The notes beneath the pieces were generated by a model that had not been told where the DNA came from, did no database searches, and worked only from the letters and a program-made list of their open reading frames with translations. 64,000 bases of DNA, taken from the IMG/VR virus record IMGVR_UViG_3300020463_000001, positions 96,001 through 160,000 of that record; one strand, written 5' to 3'. Positions 1 through 64,000 of this stretch are shown piece by piece (the stretch's first letter is position 1; each line of letters begins with the position of its first letter). This DNA comes from a virus. Lineage: Duplodnaviria; Caudoviricetes. Both the position numbers and the translations under genes were made by a program.

Positions 1-19
1 TTTATTCTTATCGACAAAC

Positions 20-1291
20 TTGTCTTCGCATGATTCTATAAAACCACATGAAACATTATATTATAGACCAGAATCAAATCATCCAATAAACGGAGGATCT
101 CATTTGGGTCATACTGTTCCTCATGTTATGGTCATGAGTAATAGCACCAGACTTATGGAAACAGAATACATAAAAGAAACTACTGCAGAAAATGTTGATC
201 AAGAATACAGATTCTTTCAAAGTGTTGTGGGAAGAGATGCGGCGTTTGGAAAACTTTTTGAGTTTGACCCAGTATATCACGATTTAGATCAAAACGCAAT
301 AGGAGATACTTTTAATTTTGTTTATGAGGTGGTCAGTGGCAGATTGCCTAATTGTTTGACTCTCAATAATTCTATCATTAGTGGAAATATAGGAGAAACA
401 GAACAGTTTCTGAAACAGTATTCATACGAATCGTGGATTAAAAATCAAAATCTAGAAATAGATACCAACTACGAAGATTTCAATCCAGAAGAGGTCAAGG
501 AAATAGAAGTTACAATTGTTGGTAGGGCCACAACGCGAGGAACTATAGATATTATAGATGACGTTGGATTTTCTATTGGAGATATTATAACACAAAGAGA
601 CAGTTCTGGCAACTTACAGGGTTCTGCTACAATAACTAGAATTCTATTTAATTACATCAGAGAGTTTTCTGTTCTTGGCGCAGACCCACAAGATCTCAAT
701 ATTATACGATATGAAATAGATAATATTGAAGGCTCATTCATCGCATCAGAGATAAATCAGATAATTGTGAACGATGAACTGAGAATTGTACTAGAAAGTA
801 TCCAAAGGGCAAATGGGTTGATGGTTCTGGAATCAGAATTATCTACTGCTAGTGGATTAATAAAACAAATTGACTTAATTTTCCCCATAAATAATAATTA
901 CACCTATGATAAAGATAGGTTCTTATTAAATACTGAAGGTATATCTGACAGAGAAGATCAATATGAATGGTTGACCTACATGAGAAGTCAAGGTCATTAT
1001 AGATTTGATGTAGATGCGAATATCGCTGCAATACAAGAATCCATAAATGAATTGACAAAGGATTACAGAGCAGGCAGAACCAATCTTACTCAGAAACAGT
1101 TTAATGAAGAAATAGAGTTTCTGGAGTTATCGAAAGGTAATCCTTTCGAAGAAGAAACTTACGAAAGATTAGAAAGAATAGAAGAATTTAAATTGGATTG
1201 TAAAGAAGAAGTGGACGAACAAACTTACTACGAAGACAATCCAGAAAGAGTTACGACAAGAGGATACCCAATATATGTCAGCTGTAACTAG
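20..1291 (+). CDS. Virion/baseplate-associated structural protein, probably 5'-truncated by the window edge
   Basis: Frame is open back to base 2. Contains an Ig-like VVSGRLPNCLTLNNSIISG motif and an FSIGDIITQ..GSATIT beta module; overlaps the PAAR gene. Confidence 0.55.
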   Translation: MSSHDSIKPHETLYYRPESNHPINGGSHLGHTVPHVMVMSNSTRLMETEYIKETTAENVDQEYRFFQSVVGRDAAFGKLFEFDPVYHDLDQNAIGDTFNFVYEVVSGRLPNCLTLNNSIISGNIGETEQFLKQYSYESWIKNQNLEIDTNYEDFNPEEVKEIEVTIVGRATTRGTIDIIDDVGFSIGDIITQRDSSGNLQGSATITRILFNYIREFSVLGADPQDLNIIRYEIDNIEGSFIASEINQIIVNDELRIVLESIQRANGLMVLESELSTASGLIKQIDLIFPINNNYTYDKDRFLLNTEGISDREDQYEWLTYMRSQGHYRFDVDANIAAIQESINELTKDYRAGRTNLTQKQFNEEIEFLELSKGNPFEEETYERLERIEEFKLDCKEEVDEQTYYEDNPERVTTRGYPIYVSCN

Positions 1292-1562
1292 ATTAGGAGA
1301 CTCTTGTACGGGTCATGGTTGTTATGCGCCTAGAGCTTGCATCAAGGGTAGTAGTAACGTCTTTGTGAATGGAAAGGCGGCACATCGAAAAGGAGATGCT
1401 TGGAATCTACATCCTTGCGGAAACTCTAAACATGGGGGAGTTACTTCTGTGGGATCTTCTAGTGTTTATGTAAATGGAAAACCTCTTGCGAGAAAGGGAG
1501 ATCCAATATCTTGTGGATCTGCTATCTTGCAGGGAAGTGACAATGTTAGTGCTGGTGGGTAA
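1275..1562 (+). CDS. gp5.4: PAAR-repeat baseplate spike tip protein (T4 gp5.4-like)
   Basis: 95 aa; three PAAR-type repeats (TRLGD, AAHRKGD, PLARKGD), GSSNVFVNG motifs, His/Cys metal ligands. Confidence 0.95.
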   Translation: MSAVTRLGDSCTGHGCYAPRACIKGSSNVFVNGKAAHRKGDAWNLHPCGNSKHGGVTSVGSSSVYVNGKPLARKGDPISCGSAILQGSDNVSAGG

Positions 1563-1573
1563 GGAGATAAACT

Positions 1574-4393
1574 TTGGCATTTAATACACCAAGACCATTA
1601 AAGGCTATATTCCAGAGTGATGGAGAAGTTATCCTTGGAGAATTCAACGAGGATGATGTTCTTGAAGTCGCGAGTGGCGGAACTGGTACTAGTACACTAG
1701 ATCAATTTAGAACTAATATCAGCGCAATTAAATACGAAGATTTCGCAACCTTCGCAGACTTCCCTGCGATCCCAGAAAGTGGTAGACTCGCAAAAGATTT
1801 ATCTACCGGATCTCTATACTATTCTCATAATGATACTTGGATAGAAGTCGGCAGCGCACAAATAGTTTCTGGTACAGACGTTGCGGGAGTTGCAATAAAC
1901 GATGTCGAAGTAGAGAAACTAGTATTCGATGGCAATTTAATATTTGATTATGATTCAGTAACTAAAGTAGGAACTCTTTCTGTTAGTGCATCTCTAACAG
2001 CAACTGAACTGACTATAGGTCTTCCTACAGACGGAACTTACGATGATGGTGCGATAGGGATATCTGATACTGCGAAGACTGCAGATGTCATCGATGATCT
2101 CAACGAAGCACTAGATAATATCAGAAATAATACATTTGTCAAAAGTGTTTTATTTTCCGGTTCTCCCCTTACTGGAGGAGAAGGAATGAATGTTACTCTT
2201 AGCATAACTTCCGATGGAAATCCAAATCGTTATGACATAGATTGGGGAGATGGTTCTCAAACTAATGGATCCTCCAGTTCTACACCAAGTCACATTTATA
2301 CTTCAAATGTTAACAGTCCATATACTATTACTGTCCGGGCATTCCACAATCAGGCCACAGGAACTGGAAGCGAAGCATTTCACACAAGAGAAGATTATAT
2401 TATCGTATTTACTGCTAACCCTGCTGTTGCCTTTAGATTATACAGAAATTCTTCTGGAGGAACACCGTTAACAGGTAATGATTTGTATGTTGTAGAGGGT
2501 GGTTCTTTATATCTAGAAAATATTACAACAAACACTCTTATGGCAGATGTGACTTACGACATGGACTGGGGAGATGGTTCCACTAACGATACAATCGCAA
2601 ATGACTCTGCTGCTGGTGGAGTGAGCGGAGACAGACTACAACATACATGGGCGGATGGAACAGATAGTGGGACAGGAAGAGATACTATGAGACTCACACT
2701 AGATTCTCACACTACTGCAGACCCGAATGCAGTTCCAACAAATAGTACGTTAAGCCTAAAGGTTTACGATGACAGTATTGCCGCGCCCGATGGTTTGAGT
2801 ACTAAATCAATTTCTTTCACAGAGGATGTGGGTTCTTCGCCAAGACTTGCACATGGGTTTACAGATAACACCGGAGTCACAACTCAATCTGCGGGAAATG
2901 AAGTCAATAGAATTACATCAACTTCTGGGACTACTGAATCTAGTGAGATAACTTCATTTGCACATAACGCAGACTCCGGTGCGTTGAGTGCTATAGTAAA
3001 TGAAACTTCAGACGGTTCGGTTACTTTAACTACCGGAAGTAATGCAGGAACACACGGAAGTTTAGTTCTCACACAGGAAAGTGACTATAATCTTTTGAGC
3101 GCGCAAGGAACTCCCACTAGTTTTAATTCTAGTATATATCGCCCAGATTTATATAAAGGATTTAAGGCGAGGGTATCAAAAGACTCCAACACAATTCCGA
3201 ATGGTGTTAACAGTTTTCAGTTATCTCACACAGAAACCGGAGACACCAACAAAGTAGAATTTATCAAAGATGATTTGACATCTACTCCAACAGTTACAAA
3301 TGGTACTATAACAGAAAAGACCGGAACTTACAAGTATATTAGTGGTATTCCTTACTACGATACTGGATCGTCTTTAACATGGAGCGGAATACAAATAACG
3401 AACTTTATTGGCCAAACATATAGAGTAACTAATAGTGTGATAGAAGTTTCTTCGAGCACAAACTTAGAAGGGACAAGTGGAAGTTCTATTGCAAGTGAAA
3501 ATTATTCTTATTCTGAAGTTGACAATCCATTAGATTCTTTCTTGACTGGAGGAATACCAAATGCAAATACAGCAAAAGATACTCAGTATACCATAAAAGA
3601 TCTGACTGTCAATATCACACCGTCAAGTGTTCGGTCTGTAGAAAAAATAAAAGTTAGAGGTCTGAATGTCAACGGCTCTGGCAGTTATGAAACTAATGAT
3701 ATGATTTTACAGGTTCACACCGCAAATCAAACAGGAATCAACGAATTATCCATACCCGTAAGTTCATCTCTTGGAGATGGTTTCAATGACAACGGAGTGA
3801 GGATATTCGATTTTGCTTCAGAGACTACGGATAATCCTTCCATAAGTAACTCCACAAATTACTATACAAATAGTCTTTATGCAGAGTCATCAGATCCCGG
3901 CGTAGTAGGAACACAAGAAGCAACAATAAGATTGGGAAGATTGTCTCATAGTGTCGCAGATTATACTTCTGGATATCTTCCGGTTGGGCCAGATAGAAGT
4001 GGTGACACAGGAATTCAGTATTTTACTTTTGCGTTCAGAAGAACAGTGACTGCGAACTTCAATATCAATATATCCTCTGGGGGTATCAGTGGTATTTGGA
4101 TTGCATCGCCTGGCACTACAATAGATAACTCCAGTACAATCAATGGATGGTTGGATTGTTCGGTTCAGTATGCTGGTGCTGGTGTGCCTGGCGAGGATAC
4201 TGCTGCTGGAGGAAACGGAAGCAATGGTTGTGCGTCTACAGGTTCGGACAAAATACAATCAAACACCACACTAAGCGGTTTTTACAGAATGACATTGGGA
4301 ACAGAGAACTTGACAAACGCGACTGGAAATGTTGCATTGGTTAGAATTGCATTGAACTCTGGACAGTCAGTCAATTCTATTAGTATCACATAG
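1574..4393 (+). CDS. Large virion structural protein with PKD-like domains
   Basis: TTG start after AAGGAG; two Y-D-x-D-WGDG PKD signatures; S/T/G-rich beta composition; lies in the structural cluster. Confidence 0.7.
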   Translation: MAFNTPRPLKAIFQSDGEVILGEFNEDDVLEVASGGTGTSTLDQFRTNISAIKYEDFATFADFPAIPESGRLAKDLSTGSLYYSHNDTWIEVGSAQIVSGTDVAGVAINDVEVEKLVFDGNLIFDYDSVTKVGTLSVSASLTATELTIGLPTDGTYDDGAIGISDTAKTADVIDDLNEALDNIRNNTFVKSVLFSGSPLTGGEGMNVTLSITSDGNPNRYDIDWGDGSQTNGSSSSTPSHIYTSNVNSPYTITVRAFHNQATGTGSEAFHTREDYIIVFTANPAVAFRLYRNSSGGTPLTGNDLYVVEGGSLYLENITTNTLMADVTYDMDWGDGSTNDTIANDSAAGGVSGDRLQHTWADGTDSGTGRDTMRLTLDSHTTADPNAVPTNSTLSLKVYDDSIAAPDGLSTKSISFTEDVGSSPRLAHGFTDNTGVTTQSAGNEVNRITSTSGTTESSEITSFAHNADSGALSAIVNETSDGSVTLTTGSNAGTHGSLVLTQESDYNLLSAQGTPTSFNSSIYRPDLYKGFKARVSKDSNTIPNGVNSFQLSHTETGDTNKVEFIKDDLTSTPTVTNGTITEKTGTYKYISGIPYYDTGSSLTWSGIQITNFIGQTYRVTNSVIEVSSSTNLEGTSGSSIASENYSYSEVDNPLDSFLTGGIPNANTAKDTQYTIKDLTVNITPSSVRSVEKIKVRGLNVNGSGSYETNDMILQVHTANQTGINELSIPVSSSLGDGFNDNGVRIFDFASETTDNPSISNSTNYYTNSLYAESSDPGVVGTQEATIRLGRLSHSVADYTSGYLPVGPDRSGDTGIQYFTFAFRRTVTANFNINISSGGISGIWIASPGTTIDNSSTINGWLDCSVQYAGAGVPGEDTAAGGNGSNGCASTGSDKIQSNTTLSGFYRMTLGTENLTNATGNVALVRIALNSGQSVNSISIT

Positions 4394-4401
4394 AGGCAAT
4401 A

Positions 4402-5313: not shown

Positions 5314-5329
5314 TAGAATGAAAAATAAT

Positions 5330-5337
5330 TATAAATA
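5330..5337 (+). promoter_or_regulatory. T4-type late promoter
   Basis: TATAAATA in the intergenic gap 52 bp before the 1998-aa ORF; variant ACTAAATA at 5351-5358. Confidence 0.85.
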
Positions 5338-5389: not shown

Positions 5390-8300
5390 ATGGGCGTCAA
5401 TCTTGAACGAAATAATGTCATACATCTTGACGGATATCATTGGGATAAAGAAAAAGATGACGATAAACCACTTCTTAGTCAGCTAACAGACGATCTATTG
5501 GCCAACGGATTTACAGACGTTGGGCCAGAAGTAATTAAACTCACAATCTCTGACAGCGAGTTGACTTCGTTTATCGATAAATTTATCGTATACCACTATG
5601 ATTCTGATCCCTCTACGGTTGGAGGTGGAGCGTTTGGTAATGCATTTGAAGACTCCAAAAAAATACCAAACTATACTGTGCCTGCAGTTAACGAACATGA
5701 TCATAATAAATTTGTTTACGACTTACCTTTAGGAAATGGAGAAGATCCAACAGGCCAAAGATTCAAATACATTCACCAAGCATATGCCGATGCAGAACGA
5801 TGGAATAAAAGGTGGTCAGAGTTCCCTACATTAGAACAAATTTCGGGATCAACATCCGCTGCATCTTACCTTGGCCCAAACTCCGAATTGTTTGCGTATT
5901 TAAATCCACACCCATCGAATATGATGACTAATGAAACTAGTCAAACCCTACCTTCTGGTGTTATAAATCATCAGAGTCGAGTTAAGAAAATTATTTTTAA
6001 TATCGGTGCAGATAAGTACGAGAGAGTATTTAATCAACTGGATACTGTTGGTGAAGAGGGTTCCGGTGTCTTCTTGGGATCAAATCGAGGACAAGAAGCA
6101 ATTAGTATTTCTAGTCAAACTGGATCTCTTACTGGAGATAATGACTCTAGTGGAAGTATAGATGATAATTTTCCTCTCGCAAAAGAAATATATCCCGCTG
6201 CAGCAAGATTTACTGAAGTTGCTCAATTTAGAGTTGGACAGAGAGTTGTTGGTGAACAATCAGGAGCAATCGGTGTTGTAACAGAATTTATAGATGCAAA
6301 TGGAGATCCCTGTGTAGTGGGTAAAAACATATTTGAAAAGAATATGATGTATGACCCAGAGTTACTTGCAAATGTCAGAGGCCAAACTGCAACACATATT
6401 TCTGATGGAACTAAAAGCGTTCTAGAGTTTTCTACAGATTTTTCTATCGCAGATTTTGATGAAACTGTAGATCAAGTTTATACAGTAACTACAACCGATT
6501 CTTCTGATGTCGTAACAAAATTAACCTCGACAGGTCTTACGCCAAATTATTCTACAAATGGAACTGGAATTACATTTTTAGATTTTGGTGGACAACCAGT
6601 ATCAGTAGGAAATGAGTTGACTGTAACTGTCTCTTATGGCCCGAAAATGTTAAAAAGCAGACTCCCAAGTGCTGGGATGGTTTATGGTGGAAACTATGTT
6701 CCAGAATACGACTTGCCCGATGACGAAGATTCTACTCGCGGAAAAATAATCACAAGAGTTAATGTTGAAAAGAAACCATATGGAAATCTACAAAGAAAAA
6801 CTGTCTTTATAGACGAATGGGTAGAACAGACAGAGGGAAGACAACTTGTAGTAGAAGCATTGTCTAAAGATTTCTTCCCCGGCGAAAAAATCTTTTCAGA
6901 AAACCCTTTTGGAGATGACGACAATTCTACTGCAGAACTGACTGGATGGTCAGAACCAATAGATGTGACTGTAAACTATGAGAACAAATCGGTGTCAAAT
7001 ACCTTTACTATGGCTGGCACTTTTAATGCTCAAGATCATGATATAAGTATAGTAGTTAGACCTTATAGATTGGTTGGTTCCGGAACATCATCTAAAAGAG
7101 AAGCTTCGGCCGCGGATCAATTTATTCTTGAAGGAGCAACTTTGACTTCTAATAGTGGCCAAAGACTAAAAAATGGAGGGTTTTCTGCGACTCAAATTCA
7201 GTATCCTTCGGGGAGTTATGATTATTGGACTCAATCTGGACCTGGCCAGGCAAATGCAACTGAAAGTGGGCCCAGCCAACAGTCGTCATTGCGTAATGCT
7301 CAGATTATAGTAACTGTATCGGCCAAAGAACCAGATTATACTACTCTTTCTAGAATTCCTCCACAATCTACCGGATTTTCTAATTCCGGTGTTCAAACTC
7401 TTGGAGAAAAGGGAGATAAGACAGGAGATTTTGGAGCTCTTACTTTTTCAAAGTTAAGTAGATTTAGTGCTCAAACCGAATTAACAAATGTCGCCGATAA
7501 AAACACTAATGATATAGTACACAGTTCAAGTATTGGTGCCGGTTCAGCAGAGTCTTTATCCTTTAGAATAGAATTTGAAAGAGAGAAAAGTCTTCTTAAC
7601 AAAATAGAACCTGTAACTGATCAGTTTGATATCAATAATCAAGTGGTTGTGAATCTTGTAAATGATTCTTTGGGAACTTCTCATCAAGTCGGAGATAGTT
7701 TTACTGTTAGTTCTTGGGACAATGATGATGTAAGAAACGCTGCAACTACTCAATATTTTCCGGCATTAGTTGTCGGATGGATCAAATCAAAATCCTCCGG
7801 CATGCCTGCCGGTAAGCAACGGGTAACTTTTGACGAACAAAACGAGTATGATGGTAGAGGTGCATCTCCTACAGAAAGAATGAGTTACGTAACTCTTGAT
7901 ATGGTACAACCCGAAGAGTCTAATGAATTTATTGTAAATTCTGGAGAAGGTAAGACATTTCTAAAGAAAGATCCGCAAGGTGGGGTAATTTCTGGAACTG
8001 GGTATTCTACTGGATATGTAGGAATCGGAACAGTTGCTAAACTTGTTTACGAAAATGAATATAACAAAGTTAAGAGATGTTTGATCAATTCTGCAAGAGG
8101 TGTTAAGTTTTCTCCGGAAGATGTTACTACTGGTCTGTCTACTTCCACCGAAGCAAGTTTAGTTCAGTATAAAGAAGAAGAACTAGTTCAAGGAAATAAA
8201 CATCATTTCTGGATTGCGTTAGATAAATCAGAAACATTCTTTACTTCAGATCAAATAGAACCAAAGACTCTTCTGGGATCTATGACTTTATCTATGAAAA

Positions 8301-11300
8301 CAGAAGATAATAGTTCCCCATCGGCACTGGCGGTAACAGGTATGCAGTTAGGAGATGTTTATACTTTTACTCTACAAAGGATTAAAGGAAGATATACTGG
8401 AGCTTCTAGTGATGTATTATTTGGCGATCCAGTAACTGTTCAGATTACTGTAGAGTCTACTTCTATTTCTGACTTTGCATTAGAATTAGCGAACGAGTTG
8501 AATGATAATTTACCAGAATATAGTTTTGAGATAGATTCGGAGAATACATCTAATATATTGTTTAGATCTAATAAAGTAGGATTTGATTTATCTATTGGTT
8601 ACAATTCTTCAAACTATTCAGAAAGTTTAGAACCAGTTAGAATAGAATCTGATAGAGCCAACTTTGGAATGAGTCCAGTCGATACGAGTGTTAGAAGCGC
8701 TTCTTCTACTCCAATTGGTATAACTGCAATCAACGGTTCTTTCGGTGTTGCTGTAAAGGATAGTTCCGATGCAAATGGTAATTATTATTTGGGAGGATAT
8801 CATCATAAGATTGATTTCGCTCTTCCAAACGAAGCCTACTATGGAGATAAATTTGAGTTTGTATTAAGTGGTTTGATAACTCAGAGTTCTATTTCGGAAA
8901 TCTACACTACTCCTTCAACTTTTGATTTAACTTTGGAGTATACTGCGGATAGAAGATTTAACAGTTCCGCATCGTTAGGTGCTGCCATTAAGAATTCAGT
9001 TATAACTAATTCTTATATATCTAAGTTTATGAAAGTAAGTCTAGAATCAAACCTAATTAAGTTTGAATATACACCAGACTCATGGGCGTATCTAGACAAG
9101 ACATCTATACATAACCAAACTGGTGCATATGGATTAATGAATGAAAATTCTTCTAAATACACATCAGTTTATGCTACAGGATCATCTGATTCAGATCCAT
9201 TTGGTTCTGTAATTACTGCAGCGACAGGATTAGCAGACGATTCATTCTTAGTTATTATGAATGAAATGACATCAAATGGATATACAGATATTCCTACTAC
9301 TGTATCTTTATATGATATGGAAGTATGGGACGGAACACAATACACAAACAATACAATGTATGTAGACGATCTACCATCAGAAGCAGTGTTTACTGGTCAA
9401 CTTACAGTTACACCAATGACTCAGTATGAGTTCACTGACGATGATACTGGAGGTTTGGGGCCTCTACAAACAATTGGTTTTGTAAGATCTCAATTACCTT
9501 CTTCTCTGGTAAGACAAAAAGTTAAAATTAAGTTTCCATTTGCCAGAGATTTTGGAACATTTGCGGATCCAATAACTCACTTATCAGATGCTGTCGGGGC
9601 AAGTTATAATAATTCATCCACATCTACTGCAGATGCTACGTCTCATCCGACAACTTTGGGAGGGAATACTAAGTATTTTACTTCTTACAAACAACACGTT
9701 ATTGGTGCAGCAGGGCCTAAGTTTGTCTCTGAAGCTGGGACTACATATTCTTCAACCGGATTTATATCTCAGGGAGATAGAAAGGGCCCAGAAACCTCAT
9801 TTGACCCAGATCTGAGAGGGTATCATCCAGAAGTTTCTGTGTCCGATAACTACGCACACTATTCTTCTTTCCCATACCATGAGTGTGGTTTAGAATTAGA
9901 AAGTTTTGAGTTTATCGCAGATCACTCAATCGGGCCGATTGTTCTTGAAACAAATGACCAATCAAACTTAGGTGGTGTTGGCGGAGATCAACCTTGGAGA
10001 ATTCGTTTCGAAGTCAGTAGAGGTTATGAAGTAACAGATGCGTCTCCATTTATTGCAACTCAAAACTATCAAGGTGTTGGGGGAAATAAAGGAAATACTG
10101 AGTTTGAATATCTGAAAGTACACGTTGCGACAGAATATCAAATTAAAGGTGATGGAACTGTAACTTCTATACAAAGTGCAGATGGACTTGAAAAAGGAGA
10201 ATTTAGAGAGCCAGGATTCCTTGGTGGTGTTAGACCTCAATACTCAGGATATGTTCGAGCAAGAACTCACTTAATATCGCCAGAAGTTACTGATTATTTG
10301 GAAGTTCAATCACTTCAAGCAATAAGAACTAGTGGTCTGAATCCTTCTGCCGGTATTGTTGGATTTAAGGATTATAATAAAGTAGTTTCTGGCACAGAAG
10401 GCGAAAGAATTCTTGGGGGAGGAACTTCTGACGGAACAGAAACAACTAAAGCAGAATTTAGATATGAAGATAAATATCTGAGAGGATCAAGTACAGAATT
10501 AGTATTTGATACTCCATTCAATACTGGTACTCTGAGAATGCAGAAAGGATTCTTTAGAAGAACTGGTAAACAAGAAAGAAGTGTTGCATTATCATACCCA
10601 ATGAGTTATACATTAACTGTTGCGGATCACGGTGTTGTTTTCTATCTCAGAGATCAAGCCGCAAGCGCACAAGCAGACGATTATGCATGGTTTGTTATTC
10701 AGAGACACGTTGATTCTACAACTGGTGTTCCGGATTATGATTCATTATCACAACCAGTACACTGTGTATATCAAACGTCTGAACCGCCTTTGTTGTATTC
10801 CGATTTGACTCCATTCTTCTCTGTAGATGAATCCAGTGGAGAAACTACAGACAGAACAACTTCTGCCTTTGTAGAAGGACTAACAAATCAATTCGGATCT
10901 AGAATCTTTGACTTCAGAGTCGATGAATTTGTAGAACAGGAATTGAAGGCTTTTGATATTGAGAACCAAGGACGATTCAGAAGATTCGTAGTTCGCGAGA
11001 AAGACGTACTGAAACCTTGGGATAGACACGTTTTCGCCGGTATATCTGAGACGGACTCTCATGCGGTACTAAATATATTAGAACAACTTGCATTGAATGA
11101 AGACGGACAATTAGTAATCCAGTTCCCGAATAGATTGGGATCACAGAGATACTTCTTTACAGGAAAAGAATTGGATTTGATTGCGTTTTCTGATGGAGGT
11201 GCCGTAGGTCAGGATACTTTGATAACAAGTGATCGATTCAGTACTACTGGTACAACAGACAAGAGAAGACTGTATAAGGCACTTATGTCAACGAAACCTT

Positions 11301-11386
11301 TTGGTAATGGTATGAGAGTTTTGACAATGGTCGCTGGATATGGAATCACATCATCACAGGCGGATACGCGGCTCCTATCATCGTAA
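5390..11386 (+). CDS. Very large virion structural protein (1998 aa)
   Basis: AAGGAG RBS and late promoter; S/T/G-rich multidomain sequence; conserved-looking C-terminal domain (WFVIQRHVD...FVVREKDV...FPNRL...ELDLIAF...GMRVL). Confidence 0.7.
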   Translation: MGVNLERNNVIHLDGYHWDKEKDDDKPLLSQLTDDLLANGFTDVGPEVIKLTISDSELTSFIDKFIVYHYDSDPSTVGGGAFGNAFEDSKKIPNYTVPAVNEHDHNKFVYDLPLGNGEDPTGQRFKYIHQAYADAERWNKRWSEFPTLEQISGSTSAASYLGPNSELFAYLNPHPSNMMTNETSQTLPSGVINHQSRVKKIIFNIGADKYERVFNQLDTVGEEGSGVFLGSNRGQEAISISSQTGSLTGDNDSSGSIDDNFPLAKEIYPAAARFTEVAQFRVGQRVVGEQSGAIGVVTEFIDANGDPCVVGKNIFEKNMMYDPELLANVRGQTATHISDGTKSVLEFSTDFSIADFDETVDQVYTVTTTDSSDVVTKLTSTGLTPNYSTNGTGITFLDFGGQPVSVGNELTVTVSYGPKMLKSRLPSAGMVYGGNYVPEYDLPDDEDSTRGKIITRVNVEKKPYGNLQRKTVFIDEWVEQTEGRQLVVEALSKDFFPGEKIFSENPFGDDDNSTAELTGWSEPIDVTVNYENKSVSNTFTMAGTFNAQDHDISIVVRPYRLVGSGTSSKREASAADQFILEGATLTSNSGQRLKNGGFSATQIQYPSGSYDYWTQSGPGQANATESGPSQQSSLRNAQIIVTVSAKEPDYTTLSRIPPQSTGFSNSGVQTLGEKGDKTGDFGALTFSKLSRFSAQTELTNVADKNTNDIVHSSSIGAGSAESLSFRIEFEREKSLLNKIEPVTDQFDINNQVVVNLVNDSLGTSHQVGDSFTVSSWDNDDVRNAATTQYFPALVVGWIKSKSSGMPAGKQRVTFDEQNEYDGRGASPTERMSYVTLDMVQPEESNEFIVNSGEGKTFLKKDPQGGVISGTGYSTGYVGIGTVAKLVYENEYNKVKRCLINSARGVKFSPEDVTTGLSTSTEASLVQYKEEELVQGNKHHFWIALDKSETFFTSDQIEPKTLLGSMTLSMKTEDNSSPSALAVTGMQLGDVYTFTLQRIKGRYTGASSDVLFGDPVTVQITVESTSISDFALELANELNDNLPEYSFEIDSENTSNILFRSNKVGFDLSIGYNSSNYSESLEPVRIESDRANFGMSPVDTSVRSASSTPIGITAINGSFGVAVKDSSDANGNYYLGGYHHKIDFALPNEAYYGDKFEFVLSGLITQSSISEIYTTPSTFDLTLEYTADRRFNSSASLGAAIKNSVITNSYISKFMKVSLESNLIKFEYTPDSWAYLDKTSIHNQTGAYGLMNENSSKYTSVYATGSSDSDPFGSVITAATGLADDSFLVIMNEMTSNGYTDIPTTVSLYDMEVWDGTQYTNNTMYVDDLPSEAVFTGQLTVTPMTQYEFTDDDTGGLGPLQTIGFVRSQLPSSLVRQKVKIKFPFARDFGTFADPITHLSDAVGASYNNSSTSTADATSHPTTLGGNTKYFTSYKQHVIGAAGPKFVSEAGTTYSSTGFISQGDRKGPETSFDPDLRGYHPEVSVSDNYAHYSSFPYHECGLELESFEFIADHSIGPIVLETNDQSNLGGVGGDQPWRIRFEVSRGYEVTDASPFIATQNYQGVGGNKGNTEFEYLKVHVATEYQIKGDGTVTSIQSADGLEKGEFREPGFLGGVRPQYSGYVRARTHLISPEVTDYLEVQSLQAIRTSGLNPSAGIVGFKDYNKVVSGTEGERILGGGTSDGTETTKAEFRYEDKYLRGSSTELVFDTPFNTGTLRMQKGFFRRTGKQERSVALSYPMSYTLTVADHGVVFYLRDQAASAQADDYAWFVIQRHVDSTTGVPDYDSLSQPVHCVYQTSEPPLLYSDLTPFFSVDESSGETTDRTTSAFVEGLTNQFGSRIFDFRVDEFVEQELKAFDIENQGRFRRFVVREKDVLKPWDRHVFAGISETDSHAVLNILEQLALNEDGQLVIQFPNRLGSQRYFFTGKELDLIAFSDGGAVGQDTLITSDRFSTTGTTDKRRLYKALMSTKPFGNGMRVLTMVAGYGITSSQADTRLLSS

Positions 11387-28317: not shown

Positions 28318-28318
28318 C

Positions 28319-38764: not shown

Positions 38765-40126
38765 ATGTATACAGAAATGCATTTGTCAGAGCAACTTCAA
38801 GAGAAGTGGAAGCCGGTAATCGAGCATCCCGATCTACCTAAGATCGAAGATTCTTACAAGAGAGCGGTAACTGCTATGCTTCTTGAAAACCAAGAAAAAG
38901 TTGCAAGAGAAGAAGCATCAATGTTGACTGAAGGGCCGATAAATGCAGTTGGTGGCGGTATGTCTCCAGTTGTCGGTGGTGAAGGCAACATTAAAGGTAT
39001 GGATCCAGTACTGATCTCATTGATCAGACGTTCTATGCCCAACCTGATGGCGTATGATGTTCTAGGTGTTCAACCTATGAGCGGCCCAACAGGTCTTATC
39101 TTCGCGATGAAATCACAATACGGCGATCAGGCCGGCGAAGCACTTTACGGCGAAGCAGATACTGCTTTCTCTGGTGCCTCAAGTCCTGTTCACAACGGAA
39201 CTGATCCATTCAGTGGTGTCGCAGTAACTGGTTCTGGCGCTTCTGCCGAACTTGATTACTCTGGTAGCGATTACACATCTGGAGGGCCCGCCGCTACTGC
39301 TAAGGCAGAAGCATTGGGAGACGGTACTGTAACTGGAATGGGTACAGGCGGTCACTTCAATCAGATGTCATTCTCAATCGATAGAGTATCTGTGACAGCG
39401 CAATCAAGAGCACTGAAAGCAGAATACACTATGGAATTGGCACAAGATCTGAAGGCAGTTCACGGTCTAGACGCTGAAAGCGAATTATCAAACATTCTTT
39501 CTTCAGAAATCACTGCTGAAATCAACAGAGAAGTTCTGAGAACAGTATACGCAGTTGCAAAGCCTGGCGCACAAGCTGGTGTAACTACGAAGGGTGTTTT
39601 TGATCTAGATGCTGACGCAGATGGTCGTTGGTCAGTAGAGAAGTACAAAGGTCTTCTTTACCAGATCGAAAGAGAAGCAAACGCAATCGCTAAAGAAACT
39701 CGTAGAGGAAAAGGTAACTTGGTTATCTGTTCTTCAGACGTTGCTTCGGCTCTCGCCATGTCAGGTGTACTAGATTACAACCCTGCGCTACAAACTAATC
39801 TTTCAGTTGATGACACAGGTCAAACTTTTGCCGGTGTTCTTAACGGAAGAATGAGAGTTTATATTGATCCTTACTTTACATCAACCTCTGGTTATGAGTT
39901 GTTGGTTGTAGGTTATAAGGGATCTTCACCTTATGATGCTGGTATTTTCTACTGCCCATACGTCCCATTACAAATGGTTCGCGCAGTGGGTGAAAATACT
40001 TTCCAACCTAAGATTGGATTCAAGACCCGATACGGAATTGTTGCAAACCCATTTGCATCAATGAGTTCTGGTTCAAACCAATACTACAGAAAGGTTGCCA
40101 TCTCAGGATTGACAGCAATCGGTTAA
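38765..40126 (+). CDS. gp23: Major capsid protein
   Basis: LENQE; DPVLISLIRRSMPNL; GVQPMSGPTGLIFAM; SRALKAEYTMELAQDLKAVHGLDAE; YCPYVPLQM; FQPKIGFKTRYG. Confidence 0.99.
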   Translation: MYTEMHLSEQLQEKWKPVIEHPDLPKIEDSYKRAVTAMLLENQEKVAREEASMLTEGPINAVGGGMSPVVGGEGNIKGMDPVLISLIRRSMPNLMAYDVLGVQPMSGPTGLIFAMKSQYGDQAGEALYGEADTAFSGASSPVHNGTDPFSGVAVTGSGASAELDYSGSDYTSGGPAATAKAEALGDGTVTGMGTGGHFNQMSFSIDRVSVTAQSRALKAEYTMELAQDLKAVHGLDAESELSNILSSEITAEINREVLRTVYAVAKPGAQAGVTTKGVFDLDADADGRWSVEKYKGLLYQIEREANAIAKETRRGKGNLVICSSDVASALAMSGVLDYNPALQTNLSVDDTGQTFAGVLNGRMRVYIDPYFTSTSGYELLVVGYKGSSPYDAGIFYCPYVPLQMVRAVGENTFQPKIGFKTRYGIVANPFASMSSGSNQYYRKVAISGLTAIG

Positions 40127-52376: not shown

Positions 52377-54094
52377 TGTTAGAATTTCAAAAAATACGGT
52401 GGAAGAATTTTCTTTCCACTGGTGATAACTTTACTGAAATATTATTTGACAAATCTCCAACCACATTAATCCTTGGTGCAAATGGAGCCGGAAAATCTAC
52501 GGTTCTGGATGCACTCACCTTTGGATTGTTTGGTAAACCCTTTCGAAAGATAAACAAACCTCAGTTGGCGAACTCTGTCAATGAGAAAGATTGTCTTATT
52601 GAGATTGAGTTCAAGATAGGAAAGACTCAGTATAAGATTCGTAGAGGTATCAAGCCTGGCATCTTTGAGATATATCATAATAAAAAGATGATCAATCAGG
52701 ATTCCAAGATAAAAGACTATCAAAAATATCTAGAAGATAATATTCTCAAACTTAATTTTAAGTCTTTTACTCAAACAGTGATCTTGGGATCTGCTACTTT
52801 TGTTCCGTTCATGCAACTTTCGGCAAAAGATCGAAGAGACATCATAGAAGATCTATTAGACATTAAGATATTCTCTTCTATGAATGAGATACTGAAATCC
52901 AGATTAATAGACCATAAAGAAAATTTAAGAGAAACCGGCAATGAAAGAAATAATATAGACAATCAGATCCACTTACAAGAATCTAGCATAGAAGAAATCA
53001 AGAAGGATAGAAAGAAACTTATACAAACTTCTAAGAAAAAGATAGAAGAGTATCAATTAAAGATTGATGAAAATGATTCTTGTATAGAAAAACTTACCGC
53101 AAAGATTGGTATGTTAAATGATACACTTGTTGAATTAAAACCAGTACAAAAGAAAATATCCAAGATGGATAGTATTAGTGCTGGACTGACTTCTAAGATT
53201 AAGTCTCTTAAAGAAGATCAAGAGTTCTTTCACGATATTGATAATTGTCCTACCTGTAAACAAGATGTTGATGCATCTCATAAAGAAATGATGATTGCAG
53301 AAAGGAAAGATAAACAAAAAGAAATAGAACAGGCCATAGAAGATTTTAAGAGTGAATATGAAGTTATTAATGCAAGGATGGATAAATTATTAAATACTCA
53401 GAATAAAGTATCTAATCTTACTGCAGATATATCCGAAAAAACTTCTCACAATAAAGGCCTCAAAAGTTCTATAAAGGATTACGAAAGAGAAGTAGAAGAA
53501 CTTGAATCGACAGATACATCTACCACTAAGATGCGAAAAGATCTCAAGAAGTTTACTGATCAGAAAAATAGGATAGAAAGGATAAGAGAAGAACTTTTGG
53601 AAGAAAGAGAATACTTGAATGTTGCTTCTACACTTCTTAAGGATGGTGGTATTAAGACTTCTATCATCAAATATTATCTTCCCATTATGAATGGTCTGAT
53701 AAACAAGTATCTTCATCAAATGGATTTCTATGTTAACTTTACAATGGATGAAAACTTCTCAGAGAATATTAAGTCTCGCAATAGAGAAAACTTTTCTTAC
53801 AGCTCATTCTCCGAAGGTGAAAAGATGCGAATAGACCTGGCTCTACTCTTCACTTGGAGAGAAGTCGCGAAGATGAAGAATAGTGTTAATACAAATCTTT
53901 TGATACTGGATGAAGTATTTGATAGTTCTCTAGATAGTAATGGAACAGATGAGTTCTTAAAACTTCTCAATCAACTTGGCGGAAATAATGTATTTGTTAT
54001 TTCACACAAAGGAGAGATCCTCTACGATAAATTTAGAAGTATCATCAAGTTTGATAAAATCAAAAACTTCAGTAAAATAGTGGAAGAGAAGTAA
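52376..54094 (+). CDS. gp46: Recombination ATPase subunit (Rad50-like)
   Basis: Walker A GANGAGKS, zinc hook CPTC, signature FSEGE, Walker B LILDEVFD, ISH. Confidence 0.97.
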   Translation: MLEFQKIRWKNFLSTGDNFTEILFDKSPTTLILGANGAGKSTVLDALTFGLFGKPFRKINKPQLANSVNEKDCLIEIEFKIGKTQYKIRRGIKPGIFEIYHNKKMINQDSKIKDYQKYLEDNILKLNFKSFTQTVILGSATFVPFMQLSAKDRRDIIEDLLDIKIFSSMNEILKSRLIDHKENLRETGNERNNIDNQIHLQESSIEEIKKDRKKLIQTSKKKIEEYQLKIDENDSCIEKLTAKIGMLNDTLVELKPVQKKISKMDSISAGLTSKIKSLKEDQEFFHDIDNCPTCKQDVDASHKEMMIAERKDKQKEIEQAIEDFKSEYEVINARMDKLLNTQNKVSNLTADISEKTSHNKGLKSSIKDYEREVEELESTDTSTTKMRKDLKKFTDQKNRIERIREELLEEREYLNVASTLLKDGGIKTSIIKYYLPIMNGLINKYLHQMDFYVNFTMDENFSENIKSRNRENFSYSSFSEGEKMRIDLALLFTWREVAKMKNSVNTNLLILDEVFDSSLDSNGTDEFLKLLNQLGGNNVFVISHKGEILYDKFRSIIKFDKIKNFSKIVEEK

Positions 54095-54282
54095 TGGATG
54101 GCGTGGATCTAGAAATCAAAAGGAAGGATTCTACTCTGTTGATAAAAGTCAACAAAGAAGAGAAGAAAAAGTTTATTGCTCTGTGTGAGTTGAATGATTC
54201 CAGTGCATCCAGAGAGATTCGCAGATTTATGAAAGAATATATTAATAATTTTTCGGTGGAAATAAAACTTGACAACGGCTAG
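54094..54282 (+). CDS. Ribbon-helix-helix DNA-binding protein (putative)
   Basis: 62 aa: beta strand LLIKV, helix EEKKKFIALC, helix SASREIRRFMKEYI; coupled to the gp46 stop (TAATG). Confidence 0.7.
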   Translation: MDGVDLEIKRKDSTLLIKVNKEEKKKFIALCELNDSSASREIRRFMKEYINNFSVEIKLDNG

Positions 54283-54297
54283 AAAATTTGAGACAAT
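54269..54297 (+). promoter_or_regulatory. Possible sigma70 promoter of the MTase cassette
   Basis: TTGACA-N17-GACAAT with TGn; the -10 lacks the first T, so it is weak. Confidence 0.4.
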
Positions 54298-54304
54298 GGT
54301 TCCC

Positions 54305-55492
54305 ATGTATCAACCTTATACTCTAAAGGATGTGTTTGCAGCATCCGCACAGAATAAATTTAACGTCATATCTACATTCGCTGGCGGTGGTGGATCTAGT
54401 ACTGGTTATCGTCTTGCTGGCGGTAATGTATTGTGTGTAAATGAATTTGTCGAAGAGGCACAAAATACCTACGCAGAAAACTATCCAAACACTCCTATAC
54501 TACCTAACGATATTAAGGAGTTGAGTGGATCAGACTTTTTAGATATTGTCGGATTGGGTGTGGGCGAGTTAGATATTCTTGATGGTTCGCCACCGTGTTC
54601 TGCATTTTCAGTTGCAGGAAAACTATCTCACAATGTTAAAAAGGAAGAGATGGTTGATTTGTTTGGAGAGACAACTATAGTCAATGTGTCTGGAAAACAT
54701 TCAGATGGTTGGGGTCAGACTAAGAATTATTCTGACGGAAAGATGGTAGAGAATATCGAAGATCTTTTCTTTGAGTTCCTTAGAGTTGCAAATGATATCA
54801 AACCCAAAGTGATTGTTGCGGAGAATGTTAAAGGATTGACCATAGGCGAGGCGAAACAATACTATAATAAAATTCTCAACGAGTTCGAAAAGATAGGGTA
54901 TGATGTTTCATCTCAAGTCATGGACGCAAGATATTATGGTGTTTCTCAGACAAGAACTAGGGTAATCTTTATCGGCATTAGACACGATATTACTGAGAAG
55001 GCTGGTTTTAACTTTATGACTGTTGGAAATATTTTTCCGCAACCGTCCAGAAAAATAATTCCCTTGATGGATGCCCTAGTAGATTTAGAATACGATCAAG
55101 AAGAAGTTGATTATCTCACAGAGAAGTTTACTAAAACTGCGTATTGGTTACAGACCGGAAGTAAGATGGAAGACGATCCAAAGAAAGTTTTGACTGGAAT
55201 GGATTATCATCCGAAAGGACATCACTTTAACCTCAAAAGAGTGTCCAGATACGCACCAGCACCCACGCTAACGGCGATGGGGAGTAATGACACTACAGCA
55301 GGTGCATTCCACTGGGCCGAACCTAGAAAACTCACTCTGGGGGAATTAAAGAGGATTCAGAGTTTACCTGATGACTTCAAGTTGACCGGAAAATGGAACC
55401 AGAAATCAGAAAGAATCGGTAGAATGGTTCCGCCAAAAATGATGCAGTCAATTGCTGCGTCTATCTATGAAAATGTATTGGAGAAAATATGA
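54305..55492 (+). CDS. C5-cytosine DNA methyltransferase-family enzyme, probably a carboxymethyltransferase (CmoX-like); start uncertain (54296 or 54305)
   Basis: Motif I FAGGGG, IV GSPPC, VI ENV, VIII QTRTRV, IX RKLT..ELKRIQS.PDDF; motif X is GRMVPP instead of GNAVPP. Confidence 0.9.
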   Translation: MYQPYTLKDVFAASAQNKFNVISTFAGGGGSSTGYRLAGGNVLCVNEFVEEAQNTYAENYPNTPILPNDIKELSGSDFLDIVGLGVGELDILDGSPPCSAFSVAGKLSHNVKKEEMVDLFGETTIVNVSGKHSDGWGQTKNYSDGKMVENIEDLFFEFLRVANDIKPKVIVAENVKGLTIGEAKQYYNKILNEFEKIGYDVSSQVMDARYYGVSQTRTRVIFIGIRHDITEKAGFNFMTVGNIFPQPSRKIIPLMDALVDLEYDQEEVDYLTEKFTKTAYWLQTGSKMEDDPKKVLTGMDYHPKGHHFNLKRVSRYAPAPTLTAMGSNDTTAGAFHWAEPRKLTLGELKRIQSLPDDFKLTGKWNQKSERIGRMVPPKMMQSIAASIYENVLEKI

Positions 55493-56037
55493 GCAACGTA
55501 AGCCAATTGATCGCTAAACATAATGGTGATGATCCTTTTAACGATGAAGCCCAAAGAAACGCGCTTAAAAGTTTCCTTCGCACAGACCTTGATTTTGTCA
55601 GATTTATTTTAGACTATGCAGAAATAAAAAGTGACGCTAAGCCATGTGATATTATAGATGACCCTTTAGGAGAAAAAAGAGTAGACTTGGGAATAATAGA
55701 TAAAAATTCTAATGTTCGATGTTTAGTTGAAGTTGATTACTATTTCAAATGGGATCCATTTTGGCCAAAAAACTATAAAAATGCTCACGCATTAGAGAGA
55801 AAAATAAAATATTGGAGGGGCAAAAATATCCCATATATTGGTTGTACTTTTAGTAAAAATCTCGATAAGATGATAGTAATTACAGATGAACTTATAACAG
55901 AGTATATGCACACCAAACGAAAAAAGTGGGTAGAACTTCATGGCGAGTTGGTAGAAGATGTTTTCATTAGTATACCCCCCTTCAGAGCGTTTAAGTTTGG
56001 AGATTGGCAAGACGACGAATTACGGAGAGTTTCATAA
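55489..56037 (+). CDS. Putative PD-(D/E)xK-like nuclease
   Basis: DDPLG..RVDLGII...LVEVD...W...H..ERK pattern; ATGA and TAATG overlaps with both neighbours. Confidence 0.45.
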   Translation: MSNVSQLIAKHNGDDPFNDEAQRNALKSFLRTDLDFVRFILDYAEIKSDAKPCDIIDDPLGEKRVDLGIIDKNSNVRCLVEVDYYFKWDPFWPKNYKNAHALERKIKYWRGKNIPYIGCTFSKNLDKMIVITDELITEYMHTKRKKWVELHGELVEDVFISIPPFRAFKFGDWQDDELRRVS

Positions 56038-56723
56038 TGGCAGACTTTACTTTTGCACACAGAAAAGAGGGCTTCGATGCTCACATAGATGCATCTATTC
56101 GTCACTACTCATCACTTCATGATGATATAGTTGCAATGTCTAGATACTTTGTAGAGAATGATACCAGTGTAGTTGATATTGGTTGCTCTACTGGAAAAAC
56201 TCTAGGGGCAATGATTGACCAGAATAAGGAATCGGCTCCTAATGCACAGTATCATGGAGTTGAAAACGCAGATGGATTTGCGGAAGATATGAAATCCAGA
56301 GAAGAAGAATATGTTGATTCTAATCTCAGTTTACATTTTCAAGATGTAAGAAACTTTGTATTTCCTGTTGATTCTTCATTCATAACGAGCATATTTACTT
56401 TACAGTTTATTCCAAAACGAGATCGACAATCTATTCTGGATTCGATATATGATTCTCTTCTTCCCGGCGGAGCATTCGTTTTTTCTGAGAAGACTTATGC
56501 CTCATCTCCAGAACTAGAACAGATACTCACATTCCTCTTTTATGACCATAAAAGAAAAGAGTTTTCCTGTGAAGATATTATGGACAAAGAATATACTTTG
56601 AGATCAATGCTGAAACCAATGCACTGGGACGATTTACTATCCATGATGTACGAGGCAGGATTCCAAGAAGTTCAACCTTTTTGGAGAAATCATCTATTCG
56701 TAGGAGCAATCGCTATAAAATAG
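56037..56723 (+). CDS. cmoA: Carboxy-SAM synthase CmoA homolog; start corrected from 56004
   Basis: FDAHI..SI.HY, VVDIGCSTG, FTLQF, GGAFVFSEK, K...LRSML.P, AGF...FW motifs match the CmoA family. Confidence 0.85.
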   Translation: MADFTFAHRKEGFDAHIDASIRHYSSLHDDIVAMSRYFVENDTSVVDIGCSTGKTLGAMIDQNKESAPNAQYHGVENADGFAEDMKSREEEYVDSNLSLHFQDVRNFVFPVDSSFITSIFTLQFIPKRDRQSILDSIYDSLLPGGAFVFSEKTYASSPELEQILTFLFYDHKRKEFSCEDIMDKEYTLRSMLKPMHWDDLLSMMYEAGFQEVQPFWRNHLFVGAIAIK

Positions 56724-59145: not shown

Positions 59146-59148
59146 CCC

Positions 59149-59177
59149 TTGACAAAGAGCTAAGAATAGATTAGCAT
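59149..59177 (+). promoter_or_regulatory. Sigma70 early promoter
   Basis: TTGACA-N17-TAGCAT. Confidence 0.75.
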
Positions 59178-59210
59178 ATAAACTGGAATTTTTAACTGAG
59201 AGAGAAAATT

Positions 59211-60380: not shown

Positions 60381-60389
60381 GGATCGAGA

Positions 60390-61419: not shown

Positions 61420-61430
61420 GGCGAAGTCTA

Positions 61431-62369: not shown

Positions 62370-62370
62370 T

Positions 62371-62754
62371 ATGTATGATCTATTTAAAGATTATGTCCCA
62401 GCTTTGTCTCATACAAAAGAGAACCTTTTAGACAACGAGGATGAACTATGGGAGAAATCTTACCAACCATACTTGATAAATAAAACATTCTCATACTATA
62501 TGGACACTATCATGTATGCGAATGAGATGAATCAATATTCTATGATAGATAATAAACTTCAATTCGACTATTTACTAAATAGTGTAAGACCAAGGAAAAG
62601 ATTTTCTCCTTGGGCTAAAAAAGAAATCAACTCTGATATTGATTTGATTAAAGAATATTATGGGTACAGTAATAGAAAAGCTGAAGAAGCGATGTCCATT
62701 TTATCTAGTTCGCAGTTAGAATATATCAGAACTAAACTATACAAAGGCGGATAA
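62371..62754 (+). CDS. gp62: Clamp loader small subunit
   Basis: YQPYLINK.FSY..DT; ANEMN; LQFDYLLNS.R..KRFS.W.K; EYYGYSN.KA. Confidence 0.95.
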   Translation: MYDLFKDYVPALSHTKENLLDNEDELWEKSYQPYLINKTFSYYMDTIMYANEMNQYSMIDNKLQFDYLLNSVRPRKRFSPWAKKEINSDIDLIKEYYGYSNRKAEEAMSILSSSQLEYIRTKLYKGG

Positions 62755-62755
62755 T

Positions 62756-63166
62756 GTGGATTTTCTGAACATAGAAGACTTAGTAGAGGTGACTCTAAAA
62801 GATCCGGAAGATTTTCTCAAAATACGAGAAACTCTGACACGGATTGGTGTGTCTTCAAAAAAGGAAAAGAAGCTTTATCAATCCTGCCACATTCTGCATA
62901 AACGTGGAAAATACTATATCGTCCACTTCAAAGAATTATTCAAATTAGATGGAAAACCATCAGACTTTTCTGACAATGACAGAGCAAGAAGAAACGCTAT
63001 TGTCAATTTATTAGAAGAGTGGAAGTTAGTTGATGTTCCAGTGAAAGATGTTATGGATCCTGCCCCATTGTCTCAAATAAAAATCATTTCGCATAGAGAT
63101 AAATCTGAATGGGAACTGGTGCCCAAGTATAATATCGGCAGAAAGACTAAACCAGTTGACAAGTAA
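62756..63166 (+). CDS. regA: Translational repressor
   Basis: FLKIRETLTRIGV; LYQSCHILHKRG.YYIVHFKELF.LDG; LLEEW.L; PKYNIG. Confidence 0.97.
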   Translation: MDFLNIEDLVEVTLKDPEDFLKIRETLTRIGVSSKKEKKLYQSCHILHKRGKYYIVHFKELFKLDGKPSDFSDNDRARRNAIVNLLEEWKLVDVPVKDVMDPAPLSQIKIISHRDKSEWELVPKYNIGRKTKPVDK

Positions 63167-63194
63167 GAAATAAACCTGTATAGTGTTATAAATA
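63156..63194 (+). promoter_or_regulatory. Tandem sigma70 and late promoters of hsp20
   Basis: TTGACA(63156)-N17-TATAGT(63179) immediately followed by TATAAATA (63187-63194). Confidence 0.85.
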
Positions 63195-63198
63195 TAAA

Positions 63199-63284
63199 TG
63201 AGGATTGCGTAAAGAGTCCTCACTTAGTCTTGCGACAATGGTCGGAGACAATATATAACTCGCTTATACAAGGAGATAACAATG
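63199..63284 (+). promoter_or_regulatory. ROSE-like RNA thermometer in the hsp20 5'UTR
   Basis: Three hairpins; the last pairs CUC(G)CUU with the SD AAGGAG, with a bulged G in UCGCU. Confidence 0.7.
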
Positions 63285-63728
63285 GTTACAATGAGAACCT
63301 TAGCTGAGTTCGATCCATTTTTGAAGAGAACTATCGGATTTGATAGTTTGTTTAGAACATTAGATTCTATGACCGAAGGAACTCAGGACAACTATCCGCC
63401 CTATAACATCGTCAAGAACGATAAATTATATCGAATAGAAATTTCGGTATCAGGCTTTTCGGAAGAAGATCTTTCTGTAGTACATGAAAATTATGTACTT
63501 ACTGTATCTGGTTCAAAGACAACACAAGAACCCGAGCAAGAGTATCTTCATAAAGGAATTGCATCTAGAGACTTCGTTAAGAAGTTTACTCTATCTAAAG
63601 ATCTAGTTGTTGTGGATGCCACAATTAACGACGGCCTTTTGGTAGTCACTCTAGAATTGGTTGTTCCAGAAGAGAAAAAACCAAGAGTTATTGACATAAC
63701 AAGTTCCCCTAAATTACTGGTGGACTAA
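63282..63728 (+). CDS. hsp20: Small heat-shock protein (IbpA/Hsp20)
   Basis: IGFDSLF; NYPPYNI; YLHKGIA.R.F...F.L; DGLL.V.L...VPE. Confidence 0.96.
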   Translation: MVTMRTLAEFDPFLKRTIGFDSLFRTLDSMTEGTQDNYPPYNIVKNDKLYRIEISVSGFSEEDLSVVHENYVLTVSGSKTTQEPEQEYLHKGIASRDFVKKFTLSKDLVVVDATINDGLLVVTLELVVPEEKKPRVIDITSSPKLLVD

Positions 63729-63739
63729 ATAATTGTAGT

Positions 63740-63758
63740 GGGGGTACTCTGTACCCCC
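63740..63758 (+). other. GC-rich hairpin without a U tract, just after variant late promoter ACTAAATA (63724-63731)
   Basis: GGGGGTAC-tct-GTACCCCC. Confidence 0.6.
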
Positions 63759-63781
63759 TCTATAATTTACCGGAGACTACA

Positions 63782-63964
63782 ATGGAAACGCATGAACAAC
63801 TTATCGTTTTATTAGAACAATACAAATTTGAGAATGAGAAGTTTGCGAGAGGAAATAAATCTGCTGGCGTTAGAGCTCGTAAGGCACTCATGGAAATAAT
63901 CAAGGCTTCAAAGGTTCGTAGATCAGAGATTCAAGAAGAAAAGGAATGGATAGTCAAGAAGTAA
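63782..63964 (+). CDS. Histone H1-like Hc1-family small protein
   Basis: GNKSAGVRARKALMEI.K..K..R.EIQE pattern; GGAG RBS. Confidence 0.75.
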   Translation: METHEQLIVLLEQYKFENEKFARGNKSAGVRARKALMEIIKASKVRRSEIQEEKEWIVKK

Positions 63965-64000
63965 AGTATGATGTTCATCTAAGAAAAGATGAAGAAACTG
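63946..64000 (+). CDS. Possible ORF start (MDSQEVKYDVHLRKDEET...), runs off the window
   Basis: ATG preceded by AAGAAAAGGA; frame open to the window end. Confidence 0.35.
   Translation, partial: MDSQEVKYDVHLRKDEET

Follow-up and report, generated by a model that had tools for sequence, protein, structure and literature searches.

GGWCC is almost absent from the genome of this T4-like phage (Gp23 at 38765-40126 of the window), and it is one among about 15 purged restriction-like motifs rather than a lone case. An exhaustive count over the window, by which we mean the whole stretch of 64,000 nucleotides analysed here (positions 96,001-160,000 of a complete, terminally repeated virus record of 200,733 bp), returned a single site, GGACC. 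This is in agreement with the original prediction of strong avoidance, in which about 50 sites had been expected and one noticed: 100 dinucleotide shuffles, all of which contained matches, gave an expectation of 52.0 ± 7.0, and zero-order and maximal-order Markov models gave 54.7 and 23.8, respectively. The ratio of observed to expected sites, which the prediction had asked to be checked by such a count, is far below 1, and the effect is larger than claimed and includes the whole genome. The site in the window is the only copy in the complete genome, where an order-2 Markov model expects 165; within coding sequences a synonymous-codon shuffle expects 119, so that the genome expectation lies at 119-165 across the nulls used. 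The one surviving site (Table 1) is not shielded, that is, not overlapped by a GpC dinucleotide. Its segment of the surrounding ORF fails to align with the nearest relative (G001) and was therefore possibly acquired recently.

Table 1. Features discussed in the text, with their positions in the window
Feature	Position	Strand	Details
Sole GGWCC (GGA-CCT, Gly-Pro)	7238..7242	+	Inside 1998-aa ORF 5390-11386
Purge of restriction-like motifs	1..64000	.	GGWCC 1; unshielded CCNGG 0 of 43; extends genome-wide
cmoX, homolog of C5-MTase-fold DNA cytosine carboxymethyltransferase	54269..55492	+	PF00145 4.7e-57; PDB 8YF3 3.9e-144
PD-(D/E)xK-fold nuclease-like ORF, 182 aa	55489..56037	+	Structure model pLDDT 91; between cmoX and cmoA
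cmoA, homolog of carboxy-SAM synthase	56004..56723	+	TIGR00740 6.2e-27, under its cut-off; PDB CmoA/YecO 1e-18

The avoidance is clearly visible in codon choice. As predicted, Gly-Pro is encoded almost always as GGC/GGG-CCN, with 28 of the 29 pairs in the window using these codons (16 GGG, 12 GGC and 1 GGA) even though GGA and GGT make up 80% of its Gly codons (binomial p 3e-19). All quoted example sites proved to be real, although two of their positions (5521 and 59735) were one base off. Gly-Gln, on the other hand, uses GGA/GGT freely, in 89 of 125 cases genome-wide. The view that GGWCC was lost rather than GGCC gained holds for the loss but not for the lack of a gain, as GGSCC is enriched threefold in the coding sequences of the whole genome (138 observed against 46 expected by codon shuffle). 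Pro-Gly pairs show a related bias: where no G precedes, the Gly codon is GGC in 45 of 45 cases, and the genome holds only 86 such pairs where 153 are expected, while four control phages are at expectation.

Many other motifs share the fate of GGWCC. The window is devoid of AACGTT, ACATGT, ACATGC/GCATGT, TGCGCA, ACCGGT, GTCGAC, GTGCAC, GGTACC, GACGTC, CGATCG and CACGTA/TACGTG. Genome-wide, zero counts were obtained for AACGTT, ACATGT, ACCGGT, GTCGAC, GGTACC, GACGTC, CGATCG and CACGTA, and also for the GC-containing motifs TGCGCA, GTGCAC, GGCGCC and ACGCGT; ACATGC, CACGTC, TACGTA, CTCGAG, CCTGAA and ACCTGC are near zero, and RCATGC, which contains GC, is nearly absent. For CCNGG, survival depends on the flanks. 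All 111 surviving sites (66 CCWGG and 45 CCSGG) overlap a GpC through a G before or a C after the site, and coding sequences contain no unshielded CCNGG where about 133 are expected. With the codon-shuffle null, unshielded coding CCWGG numbers 0 against 93 and its GpC-overlapped form 64 against 38, and the corresponding values for CCSGG are 0 against 40 and 43 against 15. The same flanks mark six of six surviving CCATGG and nine of ten surviving CCTGAA sites, and CTCGAA stands at 9/9 after G and at 11/57 otherwise.

Sorted by sequence context, this indirect footprint is firm for GCC, probable for GCT (as read from CTCGAA) and mixed for GCG, with no sign of it for GCA. A shield restricted to RGCY was ruled out, since there are survivors with only TGCC or CGCC flanks. 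GpC flanks bring no rescue to CACGTA, CTCGAG or CGATCG, and while GACGCC is kept (16 against 22 expected), GGCGCC is gone (0 against 7). The loss of GC-containing motifs could possibly reflect unmodified contexts, incomplete modification, enzymes blind to C5 groups, or purging older than cmoX. AGC/GCT is depleted genome-wide to 0.65 of the codon-shuffle expectation (2071 against 3175), AGCT stands at 0.36 and AGCTA at 0.18 of that expectation, and low AGC/GCT values recur in most loci that show the purge pattern. The phage genome further contains a Dam-like D12 adenine MTase gene (G000:C1:21404-22237, L179), and GATC is retained (838 against 1084 expected).

A candidate for the source of the GpC dependence is encoded in the window. 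The predicted CmoX shares 59% identity with the CmoX protein of Synechococcus phage S-B43 and has the catalytic SPPC motif (Cys codon at 54596) as well as the equivalent of Arg350 (AGA at 55421), with ERIGRMVPP aligned to ERVGRMVPP of S-B43. The predicted CmoA is 52% identical to its S-B43 counterpart, so that the fold with SPPC, Arg350 and a neighbouring CmoA, by which CmoX proteins are recognized, are all present. The true start of cmoX is probably an ATG near 54296-54305; a 62-codon ORF (54094-54282) lies directly upstream. In S-B43, CmoX takes the carboxy-SAM made by CmoA and carboxymethylates the cytosine of GC motifs, which blocks HhaI; in virion DNA about 75% of GC carries the modification (PMC12783734). 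Related phage C5-MTases prefer GpC[C/T], some skip GpCA, and pairs of C5-MTase and TET are reported to act on GpC (PMC8256090). The complete genome gave no PF00733 match at E<=1 for the Asn-synthase-like ligase CmoY, so that only two members of the three-step CmoA/CmoX/CmoY series were found. In close relatives (L015:11869-13434 and the next ORF; L016) cmoA is followed by a 521-aa ORF and a homolog of CmoY, and the nuclease gene is missing; judged by gene content, the cmoX-cmoA cassette is variable within the species.

We consider it very probable that the genome was shaped by site-specific nuclease selection in combination with a protective modification at GpC, the loss of sites making up for what this partial shield leaves exposed. 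According to this explanation, CmoA would make carboxy-SAM and CmoX, as its homology suggests, would carboxymethylate C5 of the cytosine in GpC. A restriction site that overlaps a modified GpC would then resist cutting and could stay, while sites unable to overlap GpC, whose absence is evident from the counts, would have been cut by host Type II enzymes and removed by selection, presumably by a switch to synonymous codons and, in part, by the disappearance of Pro-Gly and Gly-Pro pairs. GGWCC would most likely be the unshielded half of GGNCC. It would have been removed outright because it has no GC inside and gains none from its flanks within the site, and since the inner C of every GGSCC, read on the GGGCC strand, belongs to a GpC, Gly-Pro could escape into GGC/GGG-CCN. 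The original prediction had named a host enzyme of the AvaII/SinI type as a possible cause. Restriction as the cause is supported, but the sequence recognized is perhaps GGNCC rather than GGWCC alone, in which case the GpC modification would shield the GGSCC half. We lean slightly towards the complete form of this explanation, in which the cutter is a GGNCC enzyme of the host; cutter, host and modification are all inferred.

To compare phages, we defined a joint pattern as a GGWCC observed/expected ratio <0.25 together with no unshielded CCNGG. This pattern was found in 13 of 24 dereplicated cmoX loci and in 4 of 32 control loci, with a Fisher p of 0.0012 that overstates independence since the loci are related. 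The controls had been picked by capsid gene, and CmoX was tested in one of the four pattern-positive ones, a 22% fragment. The cultured OM43 phage Melnitz (MZ577097) has 0 GGWCC against 60 expected and 49 GGSCC against 16; its CCWGG sites number 0 against 63 when unshielded and 64 against 23 when shielded, and all surviving CCGG, CTGCAG and CCTGAA sites are GpC-flanked. Its gene annotated as 'HhaI methylase' (L309:4010-6194) encodes a C5-MTase related to CmoX in which Leu takes the place of Arg350, and is followed by an unannotated TET/JBP dioxygenase and then a P-loop kinase, which makes Melnitz a cultured candidate for GpC hypermodification. GATC is purged in Melnitz (23 against 515 expected). 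Phages of distant hosts share the purged set, down to unusual motifs like CCTGAA and CGAACG.

The mirror image was found in two phages without a C5-MTase. Mosig (MT647606) keeps GGWCC (71 against 67 expected) and has lost GGSCC (0 against 18), with other GGCC sites not depleted (105 against 77). G006 likewise has 76 GGWCC against 79 and 0 GGSCC against 14, with other GGCC also under-used (20 against 46). This loss of opposite halves of GGNCC in different phages fits one GGNCC-type threat. An m4C methylase as the reason why Mosig keeps GGWCC was considered and dropped, as a search for a PF01555 MTase in Mosig gave nothing. Mosig is a SAR11 phage that purges ACGT, CGCG, GGSCC and GATC (L358, L363, L409-L411), and in its first 50 kb the surviving GATC sites lie within GGATCC in 8 of 8 cases. 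G006 (L375-L382) is a T4-like phage whose complete genome of 177 kb contains three amino-MTase-like genes; it purges CATG (0 against 438 expected), CCGG, CGCG, TCGA and CASTG, and keeps GGWCC and CCWGG. G004 (L383-L388, L012), which belongs to a second cmoX clade with the nuclease, has lost CGCG (0 against 226 expected); GGWCC and unshielded CCWGG are only partly gone, and its purge may be either still under way or decaying.

Presence of CmoX is not sufficient for the pattern. S-B43 keeps GGWCC (142 against 155 expected) and under-uses GGSCC (21 against 36), with no shielded CCSGG where 8 are expected, and S-CRM01 carries CmoX without any purge; both keep unshielded CCWGG too. Because these two phages carry CmoX and yet keep GGWCC, CmoX does not cause the purge, nor does it always leave a shield footprint; it shapes the purge where selection exists. 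Extra methylases beside cmoX were rejected as an explanation for cmoX phages that keep GGWCC, as the neighbouring genes (L032, L075 and others) have no MTase motif. A more general proposal, which we put forward tentatively, is that marine T4-like phages of unrelated hosts face shared cutters (of GGNCC, CCNGG and other sites) and defend themselves in one of two ways. Some would rely on motif-specific methylases, keeping GGWCC/CCWGG and purging GGSCC; others would rely on a bulky GpC modification, keeping the sites that overlap GpC and purging the rest. Bulky groups may be needed since plain 5mC does not stop m4C-type enzymes such as BstNI; BstNI and KpnI both cut fully 5mC DNA (PMC7653180). In the strongest form of this proposal the cutters would be phage-encoded. 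If true, it would explain the viral methylomes with RGCY, CCNGG and GGWCC, and modification specificity could be read from sequence.

A minority of the genomes in a candidate host family contains suitable enzymes. SdhB of the phage finds its best matches (80%) in genomes of marine Gammaproteobacteria, and the candidate host family was picked from this SdhB match only. The five genomes with the best SdhB matches lack a C5-MTase; across the family, C5-MTases were found in 31 of 121 genomes, several closed genomes having 7-15 matches. TdeIII-family enzymes (which we take to recognize GGNCC) are present in 3 of the 121 genomes, two of them adjoining SPPY MTases, and MvaI/BcnI-family enzymes (presumably CCWGG/CCSGG) in 8, at least four of which adjoin TSPPY MTases. 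The HindVP and Eco29kI families, for which we assume GRCGYC and CCGCGG, are also represented. Three family members rich in restriction-modification (RM) genes under-use GGWCC (observed/expected ratio 0.42-0.52). In the closed genomes G086, G090, G096, G059 and G066 (L316-L335), several C5-MTase matches lie beside restriction genes; most fragmented genomes of the family gave no C5-MTase match, and marine RM content may be underestimated. Judged from these gene matches, suitable enzymes exist among plausible hosts, which does not imply that they act on the phage.

The same data bear on a host enzyme of the AvaII/SinI type with strict GGWCC specificity, which would leave GGSCC untargeted and make its excess a synonymous escape of Gly-Pro, with the GpC shield still explaining CCNGG. 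Such an enzyme would account equally well for the GGWCC count (1 against 119 expected) and the GGSCC excess. GGWCC is reported as modified in three marine virus genomes (PMC8919816), and the RM-rich G086 under-uses GGWCC (154 against 345 expected) more than GGSCC (518 against 734). However, a strict GGWCC enzyme accounts neither for the inverse pattern of Mosig and G006, in which GGSCC is purged, nor for the coupling to GpC modifiers. The SinI and Eco47II families had no match in the 121 genomes, a weak result as no positive control matched, whereas the TdeIII family is present. We therefore regard a strict GGWCC specificity as rather improbable, though it is the best of the alternatives.

Less likely still is a cutter of phage origin, either the nuclease-like ORF in the cmoX-cmoA interval or nucleases from co-infecting marine myoviruses. 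Such a cutter would attack the DNA of the host or of competitors at GGWCC/GGNCC and CCNGG, with the phage protecting itself by modification and site loss. The top fold matches of the ORF are PD-(D/E)xK nucleases (best D212 with Z 8.5, rmsd 4.1 and 132 aligned residues; Hjc with Z 7.5), D19, D66 and K105 are invariant in 31 sequences, and a PDDEXK_14 match in 10% of one cluster serves as a lead only. Homologs with an E-x-D motif recur at the cmoX-cmoA junction or beside these genes in several phage lineages (L003, L007, L011, L030, L092), which speaks for a phage-encoded cutter, as do the purged set shared by phages of distant hosts and the finding that the marine virus motifs RGCY, CCNGG and GGWCC are seldom shared with sampled host genomes (PMC8919816). 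Nevertheless, the ORF is optional among close relatives, and its distribution does not match the loss of GGWCC. Relatives without a nuclease at this slot also lack GGWCC (G001, 63% complete, 0 against 64 expected), the family was not found in the complete Melnitz genome, and homolog carriers keep GGWCC (L003, 31 against 29; G004, 52 against 106).

In a phage Type II RM pair, nuclease presence would track with loss of GGWCC or with its protection; here it tracks with neither, and the ORF was rejected as the cause that the original prediction had considered. Moreover, the purge covers about 15 unrelated motifs, too many for a single nuclease. The genome has no paralog of the ORF, the 20 unassigned ORFs scanned held no second restriction enzyme and only the Dam-like MTase, homologs of host-type restriction enzymes were not found in the genome or in the viral loci compared, and one query for MvaI-like genes in viral contigs gave none. 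The nuclease may have been lost recently in relatives that lack it. Its position suggests a link to modification, for example the cutting of unmodified GpC-containing DNA, and the family is a candidate modification-blocked nuclease.

The third cause proposed, erosion of an MTase target through deamination of a modified C in GGWCC, is highly improbable even though the AGC/GCT depletion allows for some erosion or avoidance at modified GpC in other motifs: the characterised CmoX ortholog targets GC, which GGWCC does not contain; the C-to-T products of the inner C are asymmetric rather than both enriched (GGATC 380 against 397 expected, GGTTC 394 against 295) and those of the outer C are near expectation (GGACT 213 against 232, GGTCT 249 against 222); the transversion neighbour GGAAC is equally enriched (468 against 353); deamination cannot yield the shift of Gly-Pro to GGS codons, a recoding by transversion; and the genome yielded neither a further C5-MTase nor a PF01555 MTase.

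Nuclease selection combined with a GpC shield, if right, would provide evolutionary evidence that GpC carboxymethylation protects in nature, and would make the modification context of an uncultured phage readable from its surviving sites. Melnitz on OM43 would then be a cultured test model, and there would be a direct test of why marine myoviruses modify RGCY, CCNGG and GGWCC. Site avoidance and CmoA/CmoX chemistry are both known; the literature searched contained no report of GpC cross-protection of GGNCC, and none in which single recognition sites are divided between purging and a dinucleotide modifier that can be named, with a cultured model and a mirror group to go with it.

In lytic dsDNA phages, too, Type II-like sites have been found at counts close to zero when judged by Markov and codon-aware nulls (Rusinov et al. 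2018, PMC6286503). In that work avoidance affected just 2.4% of sites for fully modified T-even phages, as opposed to 55.8% for their unmodified relatives. In contrast to this either/or, dinucleotide-limited modification and purging appear to coexist here, splitting single recognition sites by flank. Also close is the CmoA-CmoX(-CmoY) system for 5-carboxymethylcytosine of S-B43 (PMC12783734, PDB 8YF3), which is alike in sequence identity, SPPC, Arg350 and adjacent genes. The present genome differs in lacking a CmoY match, though close relatives have one, in the nuclease-like ORF between the genes and in a 6-aa insertion in the predicted target-recognition region, while S-B43 shows neither purge nor shield footprint. 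GpC hypermodification by C5-MT/TET (Burke et al. 2021, PMC8256090) and Melnitz are similar in their GpC[C/T]-centred modification, and Melnitz shares the purge and the flank rule; the chemistry there is methylation followed by hydroxymethylation, the Melnitz MTase has Leu for Arg, and no homolog of the Melnitz TET was found in our genome. Finally, Myoviridae-like marine genomes carry modified RGCY, CCNGG, GGWCC and GGHCC (Hiraoka et al. 2022, PMC8919816), an anti-restriction role of which was doubted by those authors. The same three motif classes are at stake in both cases, but GGWCC and CCNGG are modified there and deleted here.
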